Notes under the pieces: generated by a model
Seen by the model: only the letters and a program-made list of their open reading frames with translations
The model's database searches: none
What the model was told of the DNA's origin: nothing
Program-made: the position numbers and the translations under genes
Shown here: one piece after another, positions 4,005 through 61,482 of the stretch
Layout: each line of letters opens with the position of its first letter
Numbering within the stretch: the stretch's first letter is position 1
Assembly (NCBI GenBank): GCA_964016885.1
Contig: OZ024740.1
Location: 378,758,001-378,822,000 of the forward strand
Reading direction: 5' to 3'
DNA from: Eledone cirrhosa
Taxonomy: Eukaryota
DNA: 64,000 nt

Positions 4005-6426
4005 GTTCGCAAGCAAATATATATTTTTGCCTGTCTTTTTCAGCTGGTGTAAAGAGGGTGATGGCTGGAAGAAGGTATAAGCATAGGAAAAAAATATTGC
4101 AGATGGATGTGGACATATGACTGACATAGGGTGCTAAATATCCTGGCACAAACCCTGGTTACAATGACTAACAAAGCTATAAGAGAAGTTAATATATGAT
4201 CAAAATTTTATCATTAAACATCGACGGGGAGAAGTGTGTCGTTAATGATGATGGTGTACTTGCTATCACTGACGCTGATAAGAAGGTAGATTGGAAGTGT
4301 CACTACGAAAGGCTACTAAATGAGGAGAATAAATGGGAGAAAGACAGTCTCCCCACATCGATCCAATAGAGGGACCAGCAGTGCAAGTTGAAGGTAGTAT
4401 AATAAGTAAGGTGATCAAAGATATGAAGACAGGCAAGCGGCTGGGCCTTCGGAAATAGTTGCTGAAATGCTGAAAGCATCTGGAATAGTGGGACAAACTA
4501 TGGTCACCCGGATAGTAAACCAAGTCATACAGAATGGGGTCGTTCCGAAGGACTGGCGTAGCAGCATCATCATTAACTGCTACAAGGGTAAAGGAGATGC
4601 CCTAGATAGGGGAAACTATAGAGGCATTAAATTAATTGACCAGATCATGAAGGTCACATCACAGAAAAAGTAATAGCGCAACTAATCAGAGAGAGAATTG
4701 ATCTAGATGAAATGCAGTTCGGGTTTGTGTCAGGTAAAAGTACCACAGACGCTCTTTTCATTGTACGACAACTACAGGAGAAGTACCTAGCTAAAAGTAA
4801 ACCCTTATACTTAGCTTTTGTTGACTTGGAGAAAGCCTTTGACAGAGTCCCCCGCTCCATTATCTGGTGGGCTCTCAGAAAACTAGGTGTTGATGAATGG
4901 CTTGTGAGAGCTATACAAGCCATGTATAAAGAAACAGTCAGCAAGGTTAGAATTAACAACGACTATAGTGAAGAGTTTAGCATAAAAGTTGGTGTTCATC
5001 AGGGCTCCATCCTTAGCCCCCTACTATTTATTATTGCCCTTCAGGCTATAACAGAAGAGTTCAAGACCGGCTGCCCATGGGAACTCCTATACACATATGA
5101 TCTAACGCTCATAGCTGAATCAATGGCTGAACTAGAGAAGAAATTCCAAACATGGAAGCATGGCCTAGAATCAAAGGGCCTTAAAATTAACCTGTCTAAG
5201 AGTAAAGTTCTAGTTTGTAGGAAGGAAAATAGGGCACTGGTCCCATTTGGGAAATGGCCATGCTCAGTGTGTAGGAGAGGAGTAGGCAGAAACTCCATTT
5301 TATGTCCCAAATGCAAAGTATGGGTGCATAAAAGATGTAGTGGGATCACAGATAAGCTAACTAAGAATATAGATTTTATATGTGGCTGGTGCTCAGGTGC
5401 AATAAGTAGCAGCAAGTGCCCACAGAATACTAGCTCATTCCATTGCACAGATGATTCTATAGAAATAGTGGACACCTTCCATTACCTGGGTGACACAATC
5501 AGCAGTGGTGGAGGGTGCTCTGAAAGTACAGTAGCTAGAGTCAGAATGGGATGGAAAAAGTTCAGAGAGCTTATACCACTATTGGCCGCTAAAGGGTTCT
5601 CTCTAAAAATGAAAGGCAGGCTGTATGATGCCTGCATACGAACAGCAATGTTACATGGCAGTGAGACTTGGGCATTGTGTGCAGAGGATATACGCAGACT
5701 GGAGAGGAACTAAGCTTGCATGCTCCGTTGGATGTGTAATAGTAATATACGTGAACAGCAAAGCATAAATGAACTAAGAGAGAAATTAGGAATAAGAGGA
5801 ATCAGATGTTGTTTACTCGAGAGAAGACTACGTTGGTATGGTCACGTGATGCGTATGAAAGATGACAGCTGTATAAAAAAGTGCAGGGCGATAAAAATAG
5901 ACGGTAGCGACGGAGTAGGCAGACCCAGAAAAACTTGGGATGACTTGATAAATTCCGACCTCACACACTTACACATCTCCAAGACAATGTCACTGGACCG
6001 AGATCTTTGGTGCTACGCAGTAATACAGAAGACCCGCCTTGCCTAAGTACAAAGCGAAACTTACAGTCAGTAGGCACCTCTAACAAAAATACACCCCCGT
6101 CCCACTACCCCCACCCCATCCACACCACCCCTTTCGATGTAAAGTTATGTTGGTACCACAACATCCAGTCCTAAATAAATGAGGTCTTGTAGGTGTCACG
6201 ACAAAAAAAACACAGTCCACGCTGTAATGTGGCCGTGTAGGTAACACGGTAAAAACCTCCCAGTCCACACTGTAAACGTGGTTGGTATTAGGAAGGGCAT
6301 CCAGCCGTAGAAAACCCACCAGACAGTCCTATACGAGCAAGACAACCAATCTTGCCTCAAGTGGGAAAATTCCCGTCCAAACCCATGCAAGCGTGGAAGA
6401 TGGACGTTAAACGATGATGATGATGA
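4005..6426 (+). mobile_element. 5'-truncated RTE-clade LINE, inactive, with an internal PHD-like finger
   Basis: RT motifs YKGKGD..DRGNYRGIKL, QFGF, FVDLEKAFD, GVHQGSILSPLLF; catalytic YADD changed to YTYD; RRLRWYGHV and GRPRKTW; frameshifts and a stop at 5711-5713; (GAT)n tail; 12-bp target-site duplication TACAGATTTCTT at 3993-4004 and 6427-6438. Confidence 0.92.
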
Positions 6427-39570: not shown

Positions 39571-39840
39571 ATGTGCACTTGTGTATGTGTATATGTGTAT
39601 GTCTCTGTGTGTATGTCTATGTGTCTGTCTCTGTGTGTACGTGTATATGTGTATGTCTCTGTGTGTATGTCTATGTGTCTGCCTCTGTGTGTATGTCTAT
39701 GTGTATGTGTGTGTGTGTGTATGTCTATGTGTATGTGTATATGTGTATGTGTGCATCTATCTTCATAGATAGGTACAAGTGCAAAGCAAAAAAGAAGTTT
39801 GTGTGCGGGGCGCGCGCGTGTGTCTGTCTCTGTGTGTATG

Positions 39841-39877
<37 letters not shown>

Positions 39878-41160
39878 CTATGTGTCTGTCTCTGTGTTTA
39901 TGTCTATGTGTATGTGTGTGTGTGTATGTCTATGTGTGTATGTCTCTGTGTGTATGTCTATGTGTCTGTCTCTGTGTGTCTGTCTATGTGTGTATGTCTA
40001 TGTGTCTGTCTCTGTGTGTATGTCTATGTGTCTGTCTCTATGTGTCTGTCTCTGTGTGTATGTCTATGTGTATGTGTGTGTGTGTGTGTCTATGTGTGTC
40101 TGTCTCTGTGTGTATGTCTATGTGTCTGTCTCTGTGTGTCTGTCTATGTGTGTATGTCTATGTGTCTGTCTCTGTGTGTATGTCTATGTGTCTGTCTATG
40201 TGTCTGTCTCTGTGTGTATGTCTATGTGTATGTGTGTGTGTGTCTATGTGTGTATGTCTATGTGTCTGTCTCTGTGTGTATGTCTATGTGTCTGTCTCTA
40301 TGTGTCTGTCTCTGTGTGTATGTCTATGTGTATGTGTGTCTATGTGTGTATGTCTATGTGTCTGTCTCTGTGTGTCTGTCTCTGTGTGTATGTCTATGTG
40401 TATGTGTGTGTGTGTGTGTATGTCTATGTGTCTGTCTCTATGTGTCTGTCTCTGTGTGCATGTCTATGTGTATGTGTGTGTGTGTGTATGTCTATGTGTC
40501 TGTCTCTGTGTCTGTCTCTGTGTGTATGTGTGTGTGTGTGTATGTCTATGTGTGTCTGTCTCTGTGTGTATGTCTATGTGTATGTGTGTGTGTGTGTATG
40601 TCTATGTGTCTGTCTCTGTGTGTATGTCTATGTGTCTGTCTATGTGTATGTGTGTGTGTGTGTGTGTATGTCTATGTGTCTGTCTCTGTATGTATGTCTA
40701 TGTGTCTGTCTCTGTATGTATGTCTATGTGTCTGTCTATGTGTATGTGTGTGTGTGTGTATGTCTATGTGTGTCTGTCTCTGTGTGTATGTCTATGTGTC
40801 TGTCTATGTGTGTATGTCTCTGTGTGTCTGTCTATGTGTGTATGTCTATGTGTCTGTCTCTATGTGTATGTGTGTGTGTGTGTATGTCTATGTGTCTGTC
40901 TCTGTGTGTATGTCTATGTGTCTGTCTCTGTGTATGTATGTCTATGTGTCTGTCTCTGTGTGTATGTCTATGTGTGTATGTCTATGTGCCTGTCTCTGTG
41001 TGTATGTCTATGTGTGTATGTCTATGTGTATGTCTATGTGTATGTCTCTGTGTATGTGTGTCTATGTGTCTGTCTCTGTGTATGTGTGTCTATGTGTCTG
41101 TCTCTGTGTGTCTGTCTCTGTGTATGTGTGTCTATGTGTCTGTCTCTGTGTATGTGTGTG
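39571..41160. repeat. 1.6-kb compound microsatellite built from TG, TA and TC dinucleotide steps
   Basis: Recurring gtgtgtatgtctatgtgtctgtctct motif; produces the spurious C/V/M/Y-rich ORFs. Confidence 0.97.
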
Positions 41161-41844: not shown

Positions 41845-42318
41845 GGGCGAAATCTGATTGCTACCGGTGTTAAGGAACTTGAAAAGAAAATGAGGGCCTA
41901 TGTTGAAGTGAAGCAAGCAGCTAAATATATAGGGTGTATTAGTCTGCTCCAAGAACGGAGTTCGAAAGAGACTCTTAATTGCGAGGGATGTGGACGTGTA
42001 CGTATGTTAGGACTACTGAGCCATAGTAGGACTACTGGCAGGACTACTGAGCCATAGTAGACATCATACTCATGGAAATAGCACATTTGATTACCCCATA
42101 CACCTTGATTATACATGTGGTATCTGTACCAAAGTATGTCACTCTGTAGGTGGGCTAACACGGTACCACAATCAAGCTCAAGTAGACAGTAAACTCACCT
42201 GCACACCGTGTGGTATGATATGCAAGTTACTTCCTGGTTAAATGAGGCATCAACAACAATAACATCAATAACACGTTTTGCCATAATCTATTATTTTCGT
42301 GCATGAGTTGGCATCCAC
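41845..42318 (+). mobile_element. Decayed 3' end of a triple-zinc-finger RTE, ending in (TATG)n
   Basis: RNLIATGVKELE followed by CEGCGRV..GLLSHSR, CGICTKVCHSVGGLTRYH and CTPCGMICK..G*MRH; 3' end gagttggcatccact|atgtatg resembles the ends at 46436 and 46868. Confidence 0.75.
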
Positions 42319-42393
42319 TATGTATGTATGTATGTATGTATGTATGTATGTATGTATGTATGTATGTATGTATGTATGTATGTATGTATGTAT

Positions 42394-43488
42394 GTTATCT
42401 CTTTCTCTTAATTTCGAGTATATTTTTTTGACCGGCCACCTTCCTGGTGGCAAGGTTGTAAAAGAAAAGAAATTGTCATCCCTTGAATCGCAAGAATATT
42501 TTGCAAATTTTGAAGGTGCCAGCTATCGCAGCCATTTGTAGACTATGAATTAGGGAGCTGCGCTCTTTGTCCGCAAATCCAAGTTCAGTCATACTTTGGT
42601 CCAAGCGGGTTGGTATATAACCCGTAGCTCCAATAATGATGGGTATGAAGCTAAAGGTGTATCTTGGATACTGGATTTGTAAACTCCTCATCAATGGTCC
42701 GTAGATGTCCTCCTTCTCCTGTATTTTTCTGACAACGTTTACATCAAGTGGGCAGCTGATCTCCACAACAGAACACGTTTTCAATGTGTGGTCCCAAACA
42801 ACAATATCAGGCCGGTTGTGCTTTAATTTGGTGGTAGCTTTTATTTTCAGGTTCCACCAGTATTCCTTAGTGCCATCTGTCTCAATATATTCTTCCTCGT
42901 TTGTTGTTAATTTTGTTTTCCGAAGTGCGTTCCAGATGGTTCTAGCTATCCCATCGTGTCTCATGGGGAGGTAGTAGCGAGATGACATTCTTTCGCAGCT
43001 GGCAACAATGTGGCTTACATCCTCGATCTTTGTTTTACATAGCCTACATTTATTGTCAGCTGAAGGCCCTCCCCTTTTGTGCAGCAGATATTTGGTAGGG
43101 AGTTCTTGTTCCTGTATTGCATAGAGATATTCCTCAAGGTGTGATGTCATAAACCTGTCGGAACTCCATGCCAGGCTTTTTGAGTGGTTTATCCCCTCTA
43201 TGGTCTGTGTTTTACGTCTCAAGTATCCATGCACAACTTTTTCTGTAAATTGGTCAATTTTCTTATCTTGTTTGAACATTGAATAGGATCTTCCGATTTC
43301 TCTGGGTGAGAGATTTATATCAGGCTTTATTCCATATCTCTCCTCCAGATCAGTCGCTATTCTAATGATATATTTTTTTCATGCTGATAAACCTGGGCAA
43401 GATGGTTGCCAACCTTTTTCCTCTGTTGCAGGTGTTGCTTCAGTGTTACTATCCGGGTCTCATATAATGTTAATATGGATTTTAGACC
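42394..43488 (-). mobile_element. 5'-truncated R4/Dong-like RLE non-LTR retrotransposon embedded in (CATA)n
   Basis: ORF 43279-42476 has AIQEQ.L.T, the CCHC finger CRLCKTKIEDVSHIVASC, RHD, and the nuclease HNRPDIVVWD...VVEISCP...KEDIY; tetranucleotide tracts abut both ends (42319-42393 and 43489-43562); no poly(A). Confidence 0.88.
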
Positions 43489-43562
43489 CATGTATGTATG
43501 TATGTATGTATGTATGTATGTATGTATGTATGTATGTATGTATGTATGTATGTATGTATGTA

Positions 43563-45987
43563 TTGATGAGAAAGATGTGCATATAGATGACTTGTTGGCT
43601 GATAAGAGGCGCGCTCTGTCACGCTACTTGACGGCAAGACCACAGGAGAGGAATACGTTGCATGAGGAGCTCAGGGATGTAAAATCACGTGTTAGGCGGA
43701 GTCTTTCTCAGATGAAGGATCAGTGGTGGAGTGAGAAGGCTGGTGAGATACAAACTGCGTCTGATTGCAATAACACAAAGCTGTTGTACAGTCTCTTGCG
43801 TGAGGTTTATGGACCGTCTTCTTCTCTGGTGACACCGATTCGCAGCAGGGATGGCAAAGAACTTCTTCGTGACTCACAGGGAATTCTACGAAGGTGGCGA
43901 GAGCACTTTGATGATCTTTTGAATCAGCCGTCTGTCGTCAGTGAAGATTTCCTCAATCTCATTCCGGAAAGTCCTGTGAAAGTAGCTCTCGCAGAGCCTC
44001 CGACACTTGTGGAGGTTGCAGTGGCTATTTCGAAGCTGAACAGTGGAAGATCTCCAGGTATGGATGGCATACATGCTGAGCTCCTACAATATGGTGGTGA
44101 GAGACTCCTGCAACATCTTCACTCTCTGTTTGGAAGGATATGGGTTAATGAATCCGTGCCTGAGGACTGGAGAGATGCAGTAATGGTGGTCTTGTACAAG
44201 GGAAAGGGTAACAGGAATGATTGTGGGAACTACAGAGGTATATCATTGCTTTCTGTCGTGGGGAAAGTTTTATGTAGGGTGCTTCTGGACCGTCTGCTGA
44301 CACACATTGCAGATTGTGTCCTTCCTGAAAGTCAATCTGGTTTTCGTGTTGGACGCGGCACTACTGATATGATCTTCTCAGCTAGACAGCTCCAGGAGAA
44401 GTGCATTGAACAGGGCTTGGATCTGTATCAGGTTTTTGTCGATCTGACAAAGGCTTTCGATACTGTCAACAGAGATGCATTATGGAAGGTTCTCCAGAAA
44501 CTTGGTTGCCCTGATAAGTTCCTTGCTTTAGTTAGGTCTTTCCATGACGACATGAAGGCTTGGGTTAATGTCGGAGGTAACATGTCGGAGCCTATCTCAG
44601 TAAAAAATGGAGTGAAACAGGGGGATATTCCAGCACCGACCCTGTTTGCCATATACTTTGCAATGGTTTTCTGTATTGCATTCAGGAATTGCGAGCATGG
44701 TGTTTACATCCGATATCGAACCTCAGGCAGCATATTTAACATCAGGCGCTTTGCTGCGAAGACAAAAGTATTTACATCGGTCATAAGAGACCTCTTGTAT
44801 GCAGATGATTGCGATCTTGTAGCGCACACAGAGAGTGATATGCAGCACATTTTGAATGTATTTTCTGACGCTTGCACTGCCCTGGGTTTGACTGTCAGTC
44901 TCAAGAAAACCGTCGTCATGTACCAACCTGCACCTGGTAGGCAGTACACTGAACCAAACATCTATGTGTATGGCAAACGACTTGGAGTGGTTGATCAGTT
45001 TGTCTACCTGGGAAGCACTGTCAATCGATACGGCAACCTTGACAGTGAAATCTCACTTAGGATTAGGAAAGCAAGTGATGCTTTCGGAAAGCTAGAAAGG
45101 CGACTCTGGGGTCGGCGAGACATATGCAGGAGGACAAAGGTAAAGGTGTACAGGGCATGTGTACTCTCTTGTCTTCTTTATGCCTGCGAGACCTGGGTCA
45201 CATATCGACGCCACCTTAAGCAATTGGAGCGTTTCCATCAGATGTGTCTCAGACGGATACATGGCGTTCACTGGAGGGACCACATCAGTGATGTCGAGAT
45301 TTTGGAAAGCTCTATGTGTGACAGTATAGAAGCTCTTGTGCTTAAGCAGCGACTCCGTTGGAGTGGTCACCTTGCCAGGATGAAGGATTCTAGAATACCA
45401 AAACAACTCTTCTATGGAGAGTTGGTTAAAGGAAAACGACCGCCACATAAACCAAAAAAGAGGTATAAGGATTCCTTGAAGGCCTCTCTGAGAGACGCTA
45501 ACATCTCTGCTGATACATGGGAAAATGTTGCTGCTGATCGTAATAAATGGAGAAAGACTGTATATGAGGGAAAAGTTGCCTTTGAGGCATCTCGAATCGC
45601 ACACGAGAAAGTAAAGCGGGACGTGAGGAAGGGTATTGCTGTTGCACTTCCAGACGGCGAGGGTCCTCCTATGTTTCTGACATGCAGCGTCTGTGCGAGA
45701 CTCTGCCTAAGCAAAGCTGGACTCGAAAGTCATCTTCGCAGTCATAAAGTAAGACCAGTGGTTGACTACCAGGCTGCTGTTGGAGATGCTACTCATCATG
45801 CTTGCCAAACATGTGGTAGAGAATGTAAATCAGCAGGAGGACTCAAGCGACATGCAAAAGTACACGAACTCCAACCACAGCCGACTATTCCCAGTAAATG
45901 TTTTGGTTGCCGACTCTGTGCAAGACATTTTGGATCATTGGCTGGGCTAAAAAGCCACATTCGATCGCAGCACTGTTAGTTGCTATC

Positions 45988-46029
<42 letters not shown>

Positions 46030-46108
46030 GCTTATGTGCGTGCGTGTGTGTGTATATATATATGAATATGTATATTATTATTGTTGTTGTCGTTATTATT
46101 ATTATTGC

Positions 46109-46139
<31 letters not shown>

Positions 46140-46259
46140 GTTATTAATGTATGTGTGTATATATGTGTGAGTGTATGTGTATGTATGTGTGTGTGTATAT
46201 ATGTATGTATGTGTATGTATGTGTGTGTGTATATATATGTGTATATATATATATATGTA

Positions 46260-46292
<33 letters not shown>

Positions 46293-46316
46293 CTTTTTTT
46301 TTTTTTTTTTTTTTTT

Positions 46317-46373
<57 letters not shown>

Positions 46374-46436
46374 TTTTTTTTTTTTTTTTTTTTATTGTGC
46401 AATGGCCATACTCGATAACGAGGGGGCAGCCATCAT
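43563..46436 (+). mobile_element. Young 5'-truncated RTE LINE with an uninterrupted RT frame and three C-terminal C2H2 fingers
   Basis: Open frame to 45979 with YKGKG.RNDCGNYRGISLL, ESQSGFR, FVDLTKAFD, GVKQGD, LLYADD and RLRWSGH; fingers CSVC..HLRSH, CQTC..HAKVH and CRLC..HIRSQH; no endonuclease domain; (TATG)n on both sides. Confidence 0.95.
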
Positions 46437-46478
46437 GTATGTATGTATGTATGTATGTATGTATGCATGTATGTATGC

Positions 46479-46868
46479 CAAGGCAAAATTCTAGGAGAAG
46501 GAAAACTCTGATATAACACCTGCAACCCTGATGGTATCCAATGATGTTGACATGTTCTTCTTTTTGGTAAATATCATCTTGGTTAAGAGAGTGGGACTGG
46601 CTTTGTGCAGTGCCTTTGCTCACTATAATAGCTTCACGGCACAGACATTGCTTTATATCTGGAGATCTCTCTGCACTGCACTTGTCGTCACATGGTACCA
46701 TGGGCCCAGCACTATGTGTCAATAATTGTCACAGGTGTAGTGTTTGTACCAGAGTTTTCAAGTCGCTGGCTGGACTAAAAAGTCACACTCGTTCAGCGCA
46801 TCGGTAGGGGTTCTCCTACATGGATATAAAGTATTGGCCGTACTCGAAAACGAGTTGGCAGCCACCAT
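46479..46868 (+). mobile_element. Short non-autonomous RTE derivative, copy 1
   Basis: RTE 5'UTR-like ctaggagaaggaaaactctga joined to a terminal finger remnant CSVCTRVFKSLAGLKSHTRSAHR* and a CTCG-AAAA-CGAG stem-loop; TATG-type tail. Confidence 0.85.
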
Positions 46869-46888
46869 GTAGGTAGGTATGTATGTAT

Positions 46889-47329
46889 TACCAAAAAGAA
46901 GAACAAGTCAACATCATTGGATACCATCAGGGTTGCAGGTGTTATATTAGAGTTTTCCTTCTCCTAGAATTCTGCCTTGACAAAGGCTAAGGGGTCATCT
47001 CTCCCGGTGATTTTGGATGGCCATTGACTCTTAAGAGCTCCTTTGTTAAGAGAGTGGGACTGGCTTTGTGCAGTGCCTTTGCTCACTATAAAAGCTTCAC
47101 GGCACAGGCATTGCTTTATATCTGGAGATCTCTCTGCACTTGCCGTCACATGGTACCATGGGCCCAGCACTATGTGTCAATAATTGTCACAAGTGTAGTG
47201 TTTGTACCAGAGTTTTCAAGTCGCTGGCTGGACTAAAAAGTCACACTCGTTCAGCGCATCGGTAGGGGTTCTCCTACATGGATATAAAGTAGTGGCCGTA
47301 CTCGAAAACGAGTTGGCAGCCACCACCAT
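46889..47329 (+). mobile_element. Short non-autonomous RTE derivative, copy 2, with an inverted 5' segment (46889-47045)
   Basis: 46889-47045 is the reverse complement of the unit's 5' part; 47046 onward is forward; (TATG)n tail to 47344. Confidence 0.85.
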
Positions 47330-47344
47330 GTATGTATGTATGTA

Positions 47345-47749
47345 GAGATGACCCCTTAGCCTTTGTCAAGGCAGAATTCTAGGAGAAGGAAAACTCTGAT
47401 ATAACACCTGCAACCCTGATGGTATCCAATGATGTTGACTTATTCTTCTTTTTGGTAAATATCATCTTGGTTAAGAGAGTGGGACTGGCTTTGTGCAATG
47501 CCTTTGCTCACTATAAAAGCTTCACGGCACAGGCATTACTTTATGTCTGGAGATCTCTCTGCACCTCGTTACATGGTGCCATGGGCCCAGCACTATGTGT
47601 CAATAATTGTCACAAGTGTAGTGTTTGTACCAGAGTTTTCATGTCGCAGGCTGGACTAAAAAGTCACACTCGTTCAGCGCATCGGTAGGGTTTCTCCTAC
47701 ATGGATATAAAGTAGTGGCCGTACTCGAAAACGAGTTGGCAGCCACCAT
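47345..47749 (+). mobile_element. Short non-autonomous RTE derivative, copy 3
   Basis: Same unit with a different 5' start (gagatgacccc); (TATG)n tail to 47827. Confidence 0.85.
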
Positions 47750-47826
47750 GTATGTATGTATGTATGTATGTATGTATGTATGTATGTATGTATGTATGTA
47801 TGTATGTATGTATGTATGTATGTATG

Positions 47827-48274
47827 TTTCTTGGTGAGGAGGTTTCTTGGTGAGGTTTCTTGGTGAGGAGGGTGACTTTGGACATCCTGCAGGACTAAAA
47901 ACAAAACCTGTCAAAGGGCAAAGGAGCTCTTAAGAGTCAATGGCCATCCAAAATCACCGGGAGAGATGACCCCTTAGCCTTTGTCAAGGCAGAATTCTAG
48001 GAGAAGGAAAACTCTGATATAACACCTGCAACTCTGATGGTATCCAATGATGTTGACTTGTTCTTCTTTTTGGTAAATATCATCTTGGTTAAGAGAGTGG
48101 GACTGGCTTTGTGCAGTGCCTTTACTCACTATAAAAGCTTCACGGCACAGGCATTGCTTTATATCTGGAGATCTCTCTGCACTTGTCGTCACATGGTACC
48201 ATGGGCCCAGCACTATGTGTCAATAATTGTCACAAGTGTAGTGTTTGTACCAGACTTTTCAAGTAGTTGGCTGG
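47827..48274 (+). mobile_element. Short non-autonomous RTE derivative, copy 4 (longest 5' part, 3' end missing)
   Basis: Begins with three reiterations of gtttcttggtgag; homology with the other copies stops within the finger remnant. Confidence 0.8.
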
Positions 48275-48355
48275 TATCGGAGGTAACCACAGATTCCTGA
48301 TGATTTCTCAAGAATGAAACAGTTCTAGTCCTGTAGAATCTCATCTATATTAAAA

Positions 48356-48386
<31 letters not shown>

Positions 48387-58106: not shown

Positions 58107-59696
58107 TGTTATTGTCGTTGATTCACCTCAGGCGCCTGAGGATCCTCCTCAGAAGCGCTAGAGATGCGACTGGGAGACGGACTAATTCCTCTAAGGATAT
58201 GCCGAGTTGGTGATAGTATCTCACGAGCGCCAATGCAGGGCATCGTAGCCAGAGGTGTTCAGACTCCTCCTTCTCTTCACCGCAGAGTCTGCAAGTGCTG
58301 TCTTCACATCTGTCAGTCAGTAGCTGCCACCTGCGAAGTGCTGGATGGTGCCCACTTCTGAAGCGGATAAGGTGGGTGAGATCAGTTTGTCTATAGCGTT
58401 TTCGACTCTCTCGTCCGGCGGTTTGCTGAAGGTTTGGATAGTTCTCTCGTGGGTGAAGGGTGCTGGTCTACACTCCGTTTTGATGAGAGCTTGTCTCGTG
58501 GCATGGTCAGCAGGGGTGTTTGGTTGTGGAAGTGAGGAGCCCTGCTTTGCAAGTTTGTCTGCTAATTCATTCCCTTGTAGATTACAGTGACCAGGGACCC
58601 ATACAACAGTTAGGTTTTTGTCTTCTCCAAGGTTGTTAACTGCTGCCTGGAGTTCCGTTATAGTGGGATCTTTGAGGGCAGAGTTGTCGATTGCCTGAAG
58701 TAGAGATTTACAGTCGCAGATGATGGTCGCCGAAGTCCATTTTGCGTTATTGGTTTGTAACCAGTGGACGCCTTCTCTAAGCGCAGCTTTTTCTGAGTGA
58801 AAGGAGCTACTTCTAGCGCCTGTTGCTGTACGCCACTCGTGGACGACCTCACCATCTTTCATGATGACCATACCAGCTCCGCCATCAGTAGCACCTTCTT
58901 TTGTAGACCCATCGGTGTAGATTTGAACATCTGACGGGGCGAGGGTTGATATGGTGTCTATGGTGTTGGTTTGCGTTTTGGGACTTTGAGGTATTGGTGT
59001 AGATTACATGTATGGGAGTAGGGTTAGCCATGGGGGAGGTTCTGGGTCTTTGGATAGGGGTGTCGAGGGGGGGGGGATAAGATGTAGTCGTTCCAGGTGC
59101 TGGGATTGGGTGCCTCTCCAGTCTGTCTTTTTGAGCCTTTTTCGGCTGCTGGGATTGAAAACTTTGTGCCGTTCGTCCGTCTTTGGTAGGTTTTCCCAGT
59201 GATCAGCTTTAAGCAGTGTAAATGTCGAGAATCTGGAGGAGAGCGTAGGTAACTGCGATTCTGCTAGGACAGTGTCGGTCGACGTGGTTCTGACTTGGCC
59301 GGTTATGGCTCGAGCCACATCTAATTGTACTCTTTCGAGCTTGTCGATGTTGGTGGCAGACAACCAGGGTGTCCACGCCGGGGCCGCATATTCTGCGATG
59401 CTCCATTGTACGGCAGTGTATATTTGACGAAGATCCGCCTTCTTCCAGCCCCATGTCGTTCCTGCTACAGTTTTTAGTAGGTTCGTTCTCGATTGGATAG
59501 TTCGACATACCTTCTCGACATGTTCCCCAAAGGTTAACTGCCGATCGTATGTGATGCCCAGGAATTTTGGGAAAGGGTTGCAAGAAAGTTGCTTCCCGGC
59601 TATTGCGATACTGAGCTGCCACTTTGCCTCTGTTCCATCAAGACTGAAAAATGCTGTCTCGCATTTATTAATATTGAGTTGTAGTTTATTAATATT
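58107..59696 (-). mobile_element. 5'-truncated Ingi/I-group LINE with RNase H and a CCHC-like finger
   Basis: PKFLGITYDRQLTFGEH, LAGTTWG-like VAGTTWG, IYTDGS, ICDCKS, WVPGHCNLQGNELADKLAK and CRLC; (CAA)-like tail; 12-bp target-site duplication ggttgtagttgt at 58095-58106 and 59697-59708. Confidence 0.88.
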
Positions 59697-61482
59697 GGTT
59701 GTAGTTGTCAAAAGGATTGGTCAAAGTTTTTTGTAAACACAGTTAAATCTTTCATGGCGATGGGTAGGGGTGGGGGATGGATGAACTTGCCTGTAGAACA
59801 ACGAAGGAGCGGGTGAAGCCGGTCAACCGTTGAAAGTAAGTTCTATACAGCAAATTCTAAGGAGTGTGGAGGAATTAGGCTAGCTAGAAAGCAGGCGAAA
59901 AAGGAATTCTATAGGAATCTGAAAACGGGAAATTATAAAATAAAAAAAACAAACAAAAAACTAGAGTCTAAAACAGCTGCTATATGTTTAGCTGGTATTG
60001 CGTTTTCAGCCAATGCTATATAGAATTCACGGGAGTGGGGTACTGAAGCTACAAAAGCCCGATGGGCTGCCTCAGGGTAAGCAAAAGAGGAAAAAGGAAA
60101 AGGAGAGGGAGTGGAAGGAAGTGAGAAGAAGAGATAAAGGGAAAAAGAAAAGAATTACATCTACCTATGTATGCTGGAGTTTCCCCTATCTTGTTCGGCA
60201 AGTGGGGAAAAGAAGGATGTTACATCCATTGTCTACCCACCCGAGTCATGAGGGGTTTGAGGGCAAGGTAAATCCTACGCAATCGGTGTTTGTTTAGTTG
60301 TTGCTCCTTCGTAAACAGCATTTGTATTGTTTCCTCCGAGCATAAGTTACACGGACGGCGTCCTCCCGTGTAGGAGTTAGCCCCGGAAAGTAAGCTCCAA
60401 GTAAGATGGTATGAGATTTTATTATCTTGGAGGTCTCAGCGGTGGCCCGAAAGTGTAGTGGCATGTCGGCGAGACGGGTTTTTGAACGTATGTCGGTGTT
60501 GGTAGAGCCGGATTTTAAAGTCACAGGTGGTTTATCCTATATAGGCTTTGTTGGAGCTTTTCGTACTCACGTTGCATTGGTAGATTACGTTACGTTCTCG
60601 GCATCTATTGTTGAGGGGACACGAAGATCTATCAGGGCAGTTACACCTCCTGGTTGGCTCTCCACTAATGTCTAGATTGTTTCTTCCGTAGGAGTTGAGT
60701 TTCTTGTTTTTTGAGGAGGCGATGTTTTGTGCGAAGTTGGGTGTGGTGCTGTAGGAGAGTTTGATAGTGTTTTTGTTGATTTTGTTGATTATGCGGTAGA
60801 AGTGTTGTAGTGGGAAGTGTTTTTAGAGGAGTCTAAAGAAGATTTTGCCGCTTGGTGTTGCAACCTCGGCATTGTGGGGAAGGTTGAACCCCGTTACGTG
60901 GCCTGAGCGGTGGCGTCGCTTGCTGGTTCCACTAGGGGAGCCTGGGTAAAAGGAGATTTTCTCCCGAAAGCCGCTTCGCTTCAGGGCCTGATTGTAATAA
61001 GGCGCATGTTCATCGAATGTCTGCTCATTAGCGGACAAACGAGATATGCAGAGGGAGATGTTTTTAACCAGGTTATTGGTGATGTTTCAAGGATGGTTAG
61101 AGCAGCGGTTGATGTAGTGTAGGTTGTCGTTTGGGTTCCTGTATGGGTAGTACAGATTATTTTCGACATAAATCTAGATGGACAACAAATTACCTCCAGC
61201 CCCGGGGTTGCTGACAGTACTGAAACTCTCGACCCACGGACTCCCGATTTCACCCCGAGGACCATAAATCAGACTTCGACCGCAAACAATCCATCAGGCC
61301 TATAAACCCGGTGACATGCCACTACACTTTCGGGTCACATCTGGGACCTCCAAGCTAAAAACATCACATACCATCTTACTTGGAGCTTACTTTCCAGGGA
61401 GGACGCCGTCCGTGCAACTTATGCTCGGAGGAAACAATACAAATGCTGTTTACGAAGGACCAACTGCCCATATATGGAATTA

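Follow-up and report, generated by a model that had tools for sequence, protein, structure and literature searches.

The window analysed in this study is a 64 kb stretch of the Eledone cirrhosa genome (assembly GCA_964016885.1, 3.0 Gb; contig OZ024740.1), in which tandem repeat tracts were mapped with TRF. Its central feature is an array of retroelement copies separated by tracts of a TATG microsatellite (Table 1). Seven elements were found, in agreement with a preliminary description of the window which had proposed at least seven insertions from two clades, and an eighth element, F, is joined to the last of them (B4) through a deletion. The same description had placed a TATG-type tract at every junction; TRF located the six tracts where they had been placed, but the 5′ end of element D (41845) does not adjoin a repeat. 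Pure runs of at least three TATG units occur in the window only in these six tracts and once inside the 3′ untranslated region (UTR) of element A; the tracts exceed chance, a 20-mer holding two TATG units being met at 0.9% of random positions. The array is probably a pre-existing TATG microsatellite that was hit repeatedly by two retrotransposon lineages likely to recognise it. The first would be RTE-like (A, D, B and C), carrying three C2H2 fingers at the C-terminus, and the second Dong-like, with a restriction-like endonuclease (RLE) and comprising R and E.

Table 1. Elements and repeat tracts of the array, with the control element of the same window (LINE, long interspersed nuclear element; RT, reverse transcriptase).
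Feature	Position (TRF limits)	Strand	Description
D	41845..42320	+	3′ end of old RTE-like family, decayed C2H2-finger coding
(TATG)n tract	42321..42394 (42319-42395)	+	~19 units
R	42395..43489	-	5′-truncated Dong/R4-like RLE element, last 1.09 kb of 4.2 kb; CCHC and PD..E endonuclease region
(TATG)n tract	43490..43563 (same coordinates)	+	~18 units
A	43565..46436	+	young RTE-like LINE, 5′-truncated; 804-aa open frame (RT, three C2H2 fingers) to 45979
(TATG)n tract	46437..46477 (46435-46477)	+	~10 units
B1	46478..46868	+	truncated copy, positions 227-611 of the 611-bp non-autonomous element B
TATG tract	46869..46887 (46867-46888)	+	impure, short
B2	46888..47329	+	B copy of twin-priming type; the 5′ part, 46888-47045, is inverted (positions 161-318 of B)
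TATG tract	47330..47343 (47328-47344)	+	short
B3	47344..47749	+	truncated B copy, positions 204-611
(TATG)n tract	47750..47827 (47748-47827)	+	~19-20 units
B4	47828..48274	+	B copy, positions 95-516, reiterated 5′ start, 3′ end lost
F	48276..48362	+	~110-bp repeat family; first ~20 bases gone in the deletion that removed the 3′ end of B4
Control RTE	~4140-6165 on to 6430	+	decayed; PHD finger after the RT core, (GAT)n tail

Full-length copies of A measure about 5.4 kb and contain a 5′ UTR of 1583 bases followed by a single open reading frame (ORF) of about 1180–1190 amino acids of the apurinic endonuclease-reverse transcriptase (APE-RT) type. Exo_endo_phos (E 1.5e-11) and RVT_1 were matched within one ORF of a full-length copy, and the longest ATG-started frame in the 5′ UTR, taken as two natural pieces each read alone, encoded 45 amino acids, i.e., no ORF1. 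The element, which we take to be an RTE from this domain build and from its motifs, matched unnamed proteins of Spirometra and Branchiostoma. Three C2H2 fingers were present in 69 of the 120 homologs listed, those of A being widely spaced and sharing an SxAGLxxH pattern, and Mollusca was the commonest taxon among the Atlas matches to its C-terminus, which were unnamed clusters. The 3′ UTR is composed of TG, TA, TATG, ATT and T runs and A ends GCAGCCATCAT, its terminus being (CAT)1-2; a short 3′-terminal tandem repeat is a trait of the RTE clade. The window copy was 98.6–99.96% identical to 30 other copies and all 40 scored matches were identical across 386 bases; A is a young family. D, with best other genomic matches of 67–78% identity, is therefore an old one, and the 3′ ends of its relatives are often followed by TATG or TA. 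The repeats in the UTRs of A are themselves used by other elements. A Dong-like element of the (TAA)n type, whose intact ORF encodes about 1130 amino acids, lies at two loci (L267:6122-9625 and L268:5851-9273) in the (ATT)n of the A 3′ UTR, opposite to A.

The four short copies are not LINE 3′ fragments and belong to the family B, 611 bp long and with no intact ORF, which is 68% identical to the 5′ UTR of A over 227 bases and carries a finger-coding remnant and an A-like 3′ end. Judging by its sequence, B is an RTE-derived non-autonomous element; no autonomous partner of its own was found. Eight copies were present in 47 arbitrarily chosen 10-kb stretches (470 kb), which corresponds, with a wide error, to roughly 50,000 copies genome-wide. 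A further family, C, of about 340 bp, is 91% identical to the 5′ UTR of A and has its 3′ end in common with it (loci L092, at G000:C2 near 13.105 Mb, L131 and L165), so that it is likely a non-autonomous derivative of A itself.

Element R is 4.2 kb long and has 352 candidates in the genome; the window copy, which lies on the minus strand and thus in the opposite orientation, as first described, is 96.7% identical to a natural full-length copy. Its RT is followed by a CCHC motif and an RLE, as in the R4/Dong clade, among solved structures it comes closest to R2 proteins (E 6e-13), and it shares an N-terminal motif and 28–32% identity with the (TAA)n-type element of the same genome. No zinc finger was found in the N-terminal frames, and a homolog search with the N-terminus gave no match. 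A structural model of this region (pLDDT about 90 over residues 11–60) found nothing at E 0.001 in Foldseek; its best matches were Zeste (Z 5.7, root-mean-square deviation 2.5 over 64), TRF1 (Z 5.5), NgTRF (Z 5.1) and many Myb rows, and with these middling Z scores the predicted domain would resemble Myb/SANT. Element E, a sister of R, is likewise Dong-like and reads CATA; it is frequent next to TATG tracts (L116:2250-3750 and many other loci).

The flanks of these families were scored in the 20 bases beside each junction and called repeat when TA, TG or CA made up 7 of the 10 dinucleotides, a condition that holds for 8.9% of 470 kb of background. The sets consisted of the top matches minus the window's own copy (40 scored per family), and were reduced to 38 loci for A (36 at the 5′ end after removal of two inversions, and 36 at the 3′ end, two being interrupted), 29 for B and 29 for R (one 5′ and one 3′ end unread). 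Repeat was found at 30 of 36 5′ ends and 32 of 36 3′ ends of A, at 25/29 and 27/29 of B, and at 27/28 and 26/28 of R, most of the misses being repeats with a phase shift. The family-wide 5′ flanks, which had been named as the check on the first description, are mostly repeat and not unique; the insertion of the RTEs into the repeat and the use of the same repeat, in opposite orientation, by an unrelated RLE family are supported genome-wide. Among unselected B copies, 6 of 7 5′ ends and 7 of 8 3′ ends were at a tract, and raw reads of three other samples contained 1714, 1751 and 1253 TATG-type loose ends before the 5′ end of B. Loose ends at this position starting with CATG and non-repeat letters (555–1662 reads a class) look like restriction or adapter ends.

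The junction of A and B is fixed as CAT↓(A/G)TAT, the arrow marking the end of the element: the four bases after the terminal CAT were a purine in 65/65 copies, T in 65/65, A in 59/65 and T in 62/65. The 12-mer after CAT was of the TATG class in 27 of 65 (background 0.32%), of the TA class in 18 (3.67%) and of the CATA class in none. For R, the class was CATA at 25 of 28 3′ ends and 22 of 28 5′ ends and never TA, an rDNA or microsatellite target being a trait of R4/Dong. The target of A and B is thus (T[A/G])n, within which TATG is preferred about 17-fold over TA per available base; TATG as originally proposed stands as the preferred target, and the range is wider, with TA included.

At the far end of the flanking tract another family member was present in 55 of 154 cases, as compared with 57 of 1109 tract ends taken at random and 27 of 137 that were rich in TATG. 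Polarity was kept in 50 of 51 RTE-type and Dong-type neighbours, the exception being a 75% match: A and B read TATG or TA on their sense strand and R reads CATA. In the window the B copies are in the sense orientation, as had been stated for all RTE-type members, apart from the inverted 5′ part of B2. Their 5′ breakpoints differ, as claimed (positions 227, 161 inverted, 204 and 95 on a natural 611-bp reference copy), and the accompanying claim that all breakpoints abut the repeat fails at D. B1, B3 and B4 differ from one another by 5–9 bases in a 190-bp core and from copies elsewhere by 2–5. Neighbouring B copies are therefore of independent origin, i.e., separate insertions as first argued, and tandem duplication of B is ruled out by these distances, the differing breakpoints and the 5′ inversion of B2.

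Other families of the same genome served as controls. The control RTE, which also ends in AT, had repeat at 7 of 16 5′ ends and 5 of 29 3′ ends (30 loci, among them that of the window). A CR1-type family, chosen as a negative control, proved to lie in (TA)n as often as the array families (5′ 10/12, 3′ 22/26), with no strand bias, and F (1014 candidates in the genome) had TA runs on both sides in all 11 other copies fetched (L356-L366). Many elements of this genome are therefore drawn to TA repeats, whose attraction across the genome may account for part of the signal. If TA-type repeats were simply easily nicked or broken, with the polarity coming from 3′ microhomology and no evolved specificity, these figures would be expected, and a passage of PMC6007223 connects the 3′ repeats of RTEs with the initial base of the target-site duplication. 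Such an explanation is nevertheless unlikely, as each family has its own class (TATG for A and B, CATA for R, TA in 16 of 26 for the CR1-type family, which has no TATG or CATA, and (ATT)n for a second Dong-like family), enrichment is much lower in the control RTE, which has the same AT end, and TATG recurs in relatives of A at 45–72% identity. In addition, microhomology alone would favour CAT↓ACAT junctions, which were found once in 65. A, B and R are set apart by their TATG/CATA class and by polarity.

The preliminary description had the RTEs ending in ...catgtatg, and hence renewing their target at each insertion. The real end of A and B is ...CCA(C/T)CAT, and what comes next differs among copies, corresponding in each to that copy's own 5′ flank. 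In A, the first four bases after CAT were GTAT in 18, ATAT in 13 and others in five. The within-copy flank match was 11.8 bases against 6.3 in shuffled pairs for A (n = 34; 0/5000 shuffles) and 11.1 against 8.0 for B (n = 29; 1/5000), and for R the match by composition was reached in 44/5000. The median of about 11 bases in A is consistent with a short target-site duplication, whose exact length is blurred by the repeat. Private variant motifs were present on both sides of single copies, and copies at least 99% identical already carry long impure tracts. Median flank tract lengths (capped at 400) were 54/56 for A, 68/53 for B and 76/66 for R, and 51/52 at random points inside tracts, a comparison that is partly circular because this background includes occupied tracts. 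The flank match, the shared variants and the background-like lengths indicate that the repeat came first and that renewal is mainly target-site duplication, with little else left of 'self-renewal'; a TATG tail coded by the element is rejected on the variable bases after CAT, the mirroring of the flanks and the tract lengths. It is accordingly quite improbable that, by means of a TATG tail or seed of their own, the elements lengthen the repeat and have made most of the tracts themselves, even though long pure TATG runs often adjoin them, pure runs are longer at the 5′ side of R (median 32 versus 12, p 0.018, one of eight such tests), 3′ TATG is near-uniform in metagenome relatives and RTEs are reported in a passage of PMC2887409 to generate microsatellite families.

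At five loci (L095, L122, L125, L208, L222) odd variant units by the junction recur many times in the flanking tract, as ordinary slippage or repeated priming at insertion may produce. No haplotype duplicate of the left flank of the array was found in the assembly. Although no read or contig piece crosses the array when reads are placed on B1-B3, an assembly join at the microsatellites or a tandem duplication is very improbable, as the breakpoints differ, B2 is 5′-inverted, the window copies resemble copies elsewhere more than one another, neighbours of this kind are frequent across the genome, and joints of B, tract and B are present in raw reads of another sample.

Relatives of A outside the host were sought in a metagenome scan that returned 68 loci, and 3′ ends were inspected for the 14 closest holding one. 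Twelve of these, at 47–53% identity to A (11 families, 45–72% among themselves, mostly with three fingers), all end in CAT↓GT, and at least two TATG units follow CAT in 11 of the 12; the two more distant ones are without the CAT↓GT-TATG end. In all, TATG ends are absent from the more distant RTEs L287, L294, L344 and L346. Of the eight contigs with at least 750 bases before the ORF, five open with TATG. A quick tree of 26 rows has a branch (SH-aLRT 95) to one side of which all 11 TATG rows fall, away from single-finger RTEs. No relative was found in the viral contigs searched; the GTDB contigs gave five relatives, with no TATG ends among the two inspected. Shared and oriented use of the microsatellite is well supported past the locus and probably extends past the host. 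We lean, with some reserve, towards adding the three-finger RTE-type elements to R1 and Tx1 as the third APE retrotransposon lineage with sequence specificity; it would have kept (TATG)n across many hosts at 45–72% protein identity, and a Dong lineage reading CATA would use the same repeat on the opposite strand.

Several observations, besides the use of TA by the CR1-type family and F, weigh against targeting of a pre-existing repeat by two recognising lineages. Plain TA accounts for 18 of the 65 A and B copies, and the genomic copies scored were the top-scoring matches only (40 of 3969, 1205 and, for R, 352 candidates). The within-copy duplication test was not significant for R (629/5000), no empty alleles were seen when reads were placed on B1-B3, and nick positions inside repeats are ambiguous. 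Outside the host, three of the eight long contigs are without 5′ TATG, and in a tree of 36 rows that included seven long-branch rows the support of the TATG branch was 12. The metagenome contigs are probably collapsed multi-copy assemblies; their 3′ TATG could thus be a tail, and they show association and not per-copy targeting. As to the part of the protein that would read the repeat, the fingers are a candidate only and need not bind DNA.

A mechanism of target-primed reverse transcription can be proposed from the junctions for the targeting of a pre-existing repeat. The RTE endonuclease would place a nick at AT^A in the CATA strand, and the 3′ end so formed would pair with the terminal AU of the RNA. 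This rule would fit the CATA strand and TA and not the TATG strand, and as such a nick is possible only there, it would account for the polarity seen and for insertion into TA. Why TATG exceeds TA and why ATT junctions are absent (0/65) is left unexplained by it, so that some further recognition would be needed. The Dong-like enzyme would nick the opposite (TATG) strand and may read it with its predicted Myb-like domain. Each insertion would duplicate about 10–17 bases and leave two usable tracts, by which arrays would grow.

Waldo, Kibi and Koshi are reportedly among the sequence-specific APE elements, and TRAS and SART lie in opposite orientations within telomeric repeats. The TRAS/SART case is alike in that two families occupy one repeat in opposite orientations and build arrays; here, in contrast, the target is dispersed and the endonucleases of the partners are unrelated (APE and RLE). 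TRAS targets telomeric repeats, and RTE insertion sites are described as not sequence-specific (PMC2887409); a 2026 review counts their insertion as random (PMC13708176), and R1 and Tx1 are the only clades named for target-specific APE elements (PMC4640811). With the latter, A has in common APE and RT, a multicopy repeat as target and a fixed orientation, and it differs in its single ORF, RTE build and looser specificity, TA being used too (PMC4640811). Ordinary RTE LINEs and their short elements (SINEs) likewise have a single APE-RT ORF, a short 3′ repeat, short target-site duplications and non-autonomous derivatives, but their insertion is not sequence-specific or requires a T-stretch with one or two matching bases, whereas here both flanks are microsatellite (PMC2887409, PMC6007223). 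An HDV-like (hepatitis delta virus) ribozyme in the 5′ UTR is given as a feature of the RTE clade (PMC3774820); an Rfam scan for it at four loci returned only repeat-driven microRNA matches below threshold. Dong/R4 elements of most insects, molluscs and cnidarians target (TAA)n (PMC7998251). R is similar to them in RT and RLE and in having a microsatellite target, which is (CATA)n and not the (TAA)n of that paper; its predicted N-terminal helical domain may also be Myb/SANT-like. RTE-2_OV of Octopus vulgaris is also an RTE with a C2H2 finger, microsatellite makes up most of its 3′ UTR, and Dong is present in the same animals; RTE-2_OV is set apart by description, with 1109 amino acids and UTRs of about 600 nt as compared with about 1180–1190 amino acids and the 1583-base 5′ UTR of A, and no target preference is stated for it in the passages of that paper (PMC9115989). 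No TATG-targeting RTE or CATA-targeting Dong element was found in passages of PMC2887409, PMC4640811, PMC6007223, PMC7998251, PMC3774820, PMC9115989, PMC13708176, PMC7878876, PMC4758252 and PMC13282606, Repbase reports and most subscription papers lying outside this scope.

Among the other features, a 1.6-kb TG-rich minisatellite (39580-41159) lies immediately to the left of the array, with no member of the array families noted inside, and two frames at 58317-59720 on the minus strand include one with an RNase H match (E 2e-14). Other families (CR1-type and F) use (TA)n here. The CR1-type family (L201-L230, G000) is very young, its copies being mostly more than 99% identical, and ends in (AAAAGAGT)n with long (TA)n tracts at both ends; F copies sometimes occur as adjacent inverted pairs.

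If the interpretation holds, a conserved lineage of single-ORF RTEs directed to a microsatellite would represent an independent origin of target specificity, and the single-finger RTEs would be the comparison group in which to find its determinant. Four or more families would divide the TA, TATG, CATA and TAA repeats of this genome among them, which would explain the clustering of repeats and retroelements in it. Since RTEs are under development for gene insertion, a naturally repeat-directed RTE would also be of practical interest.

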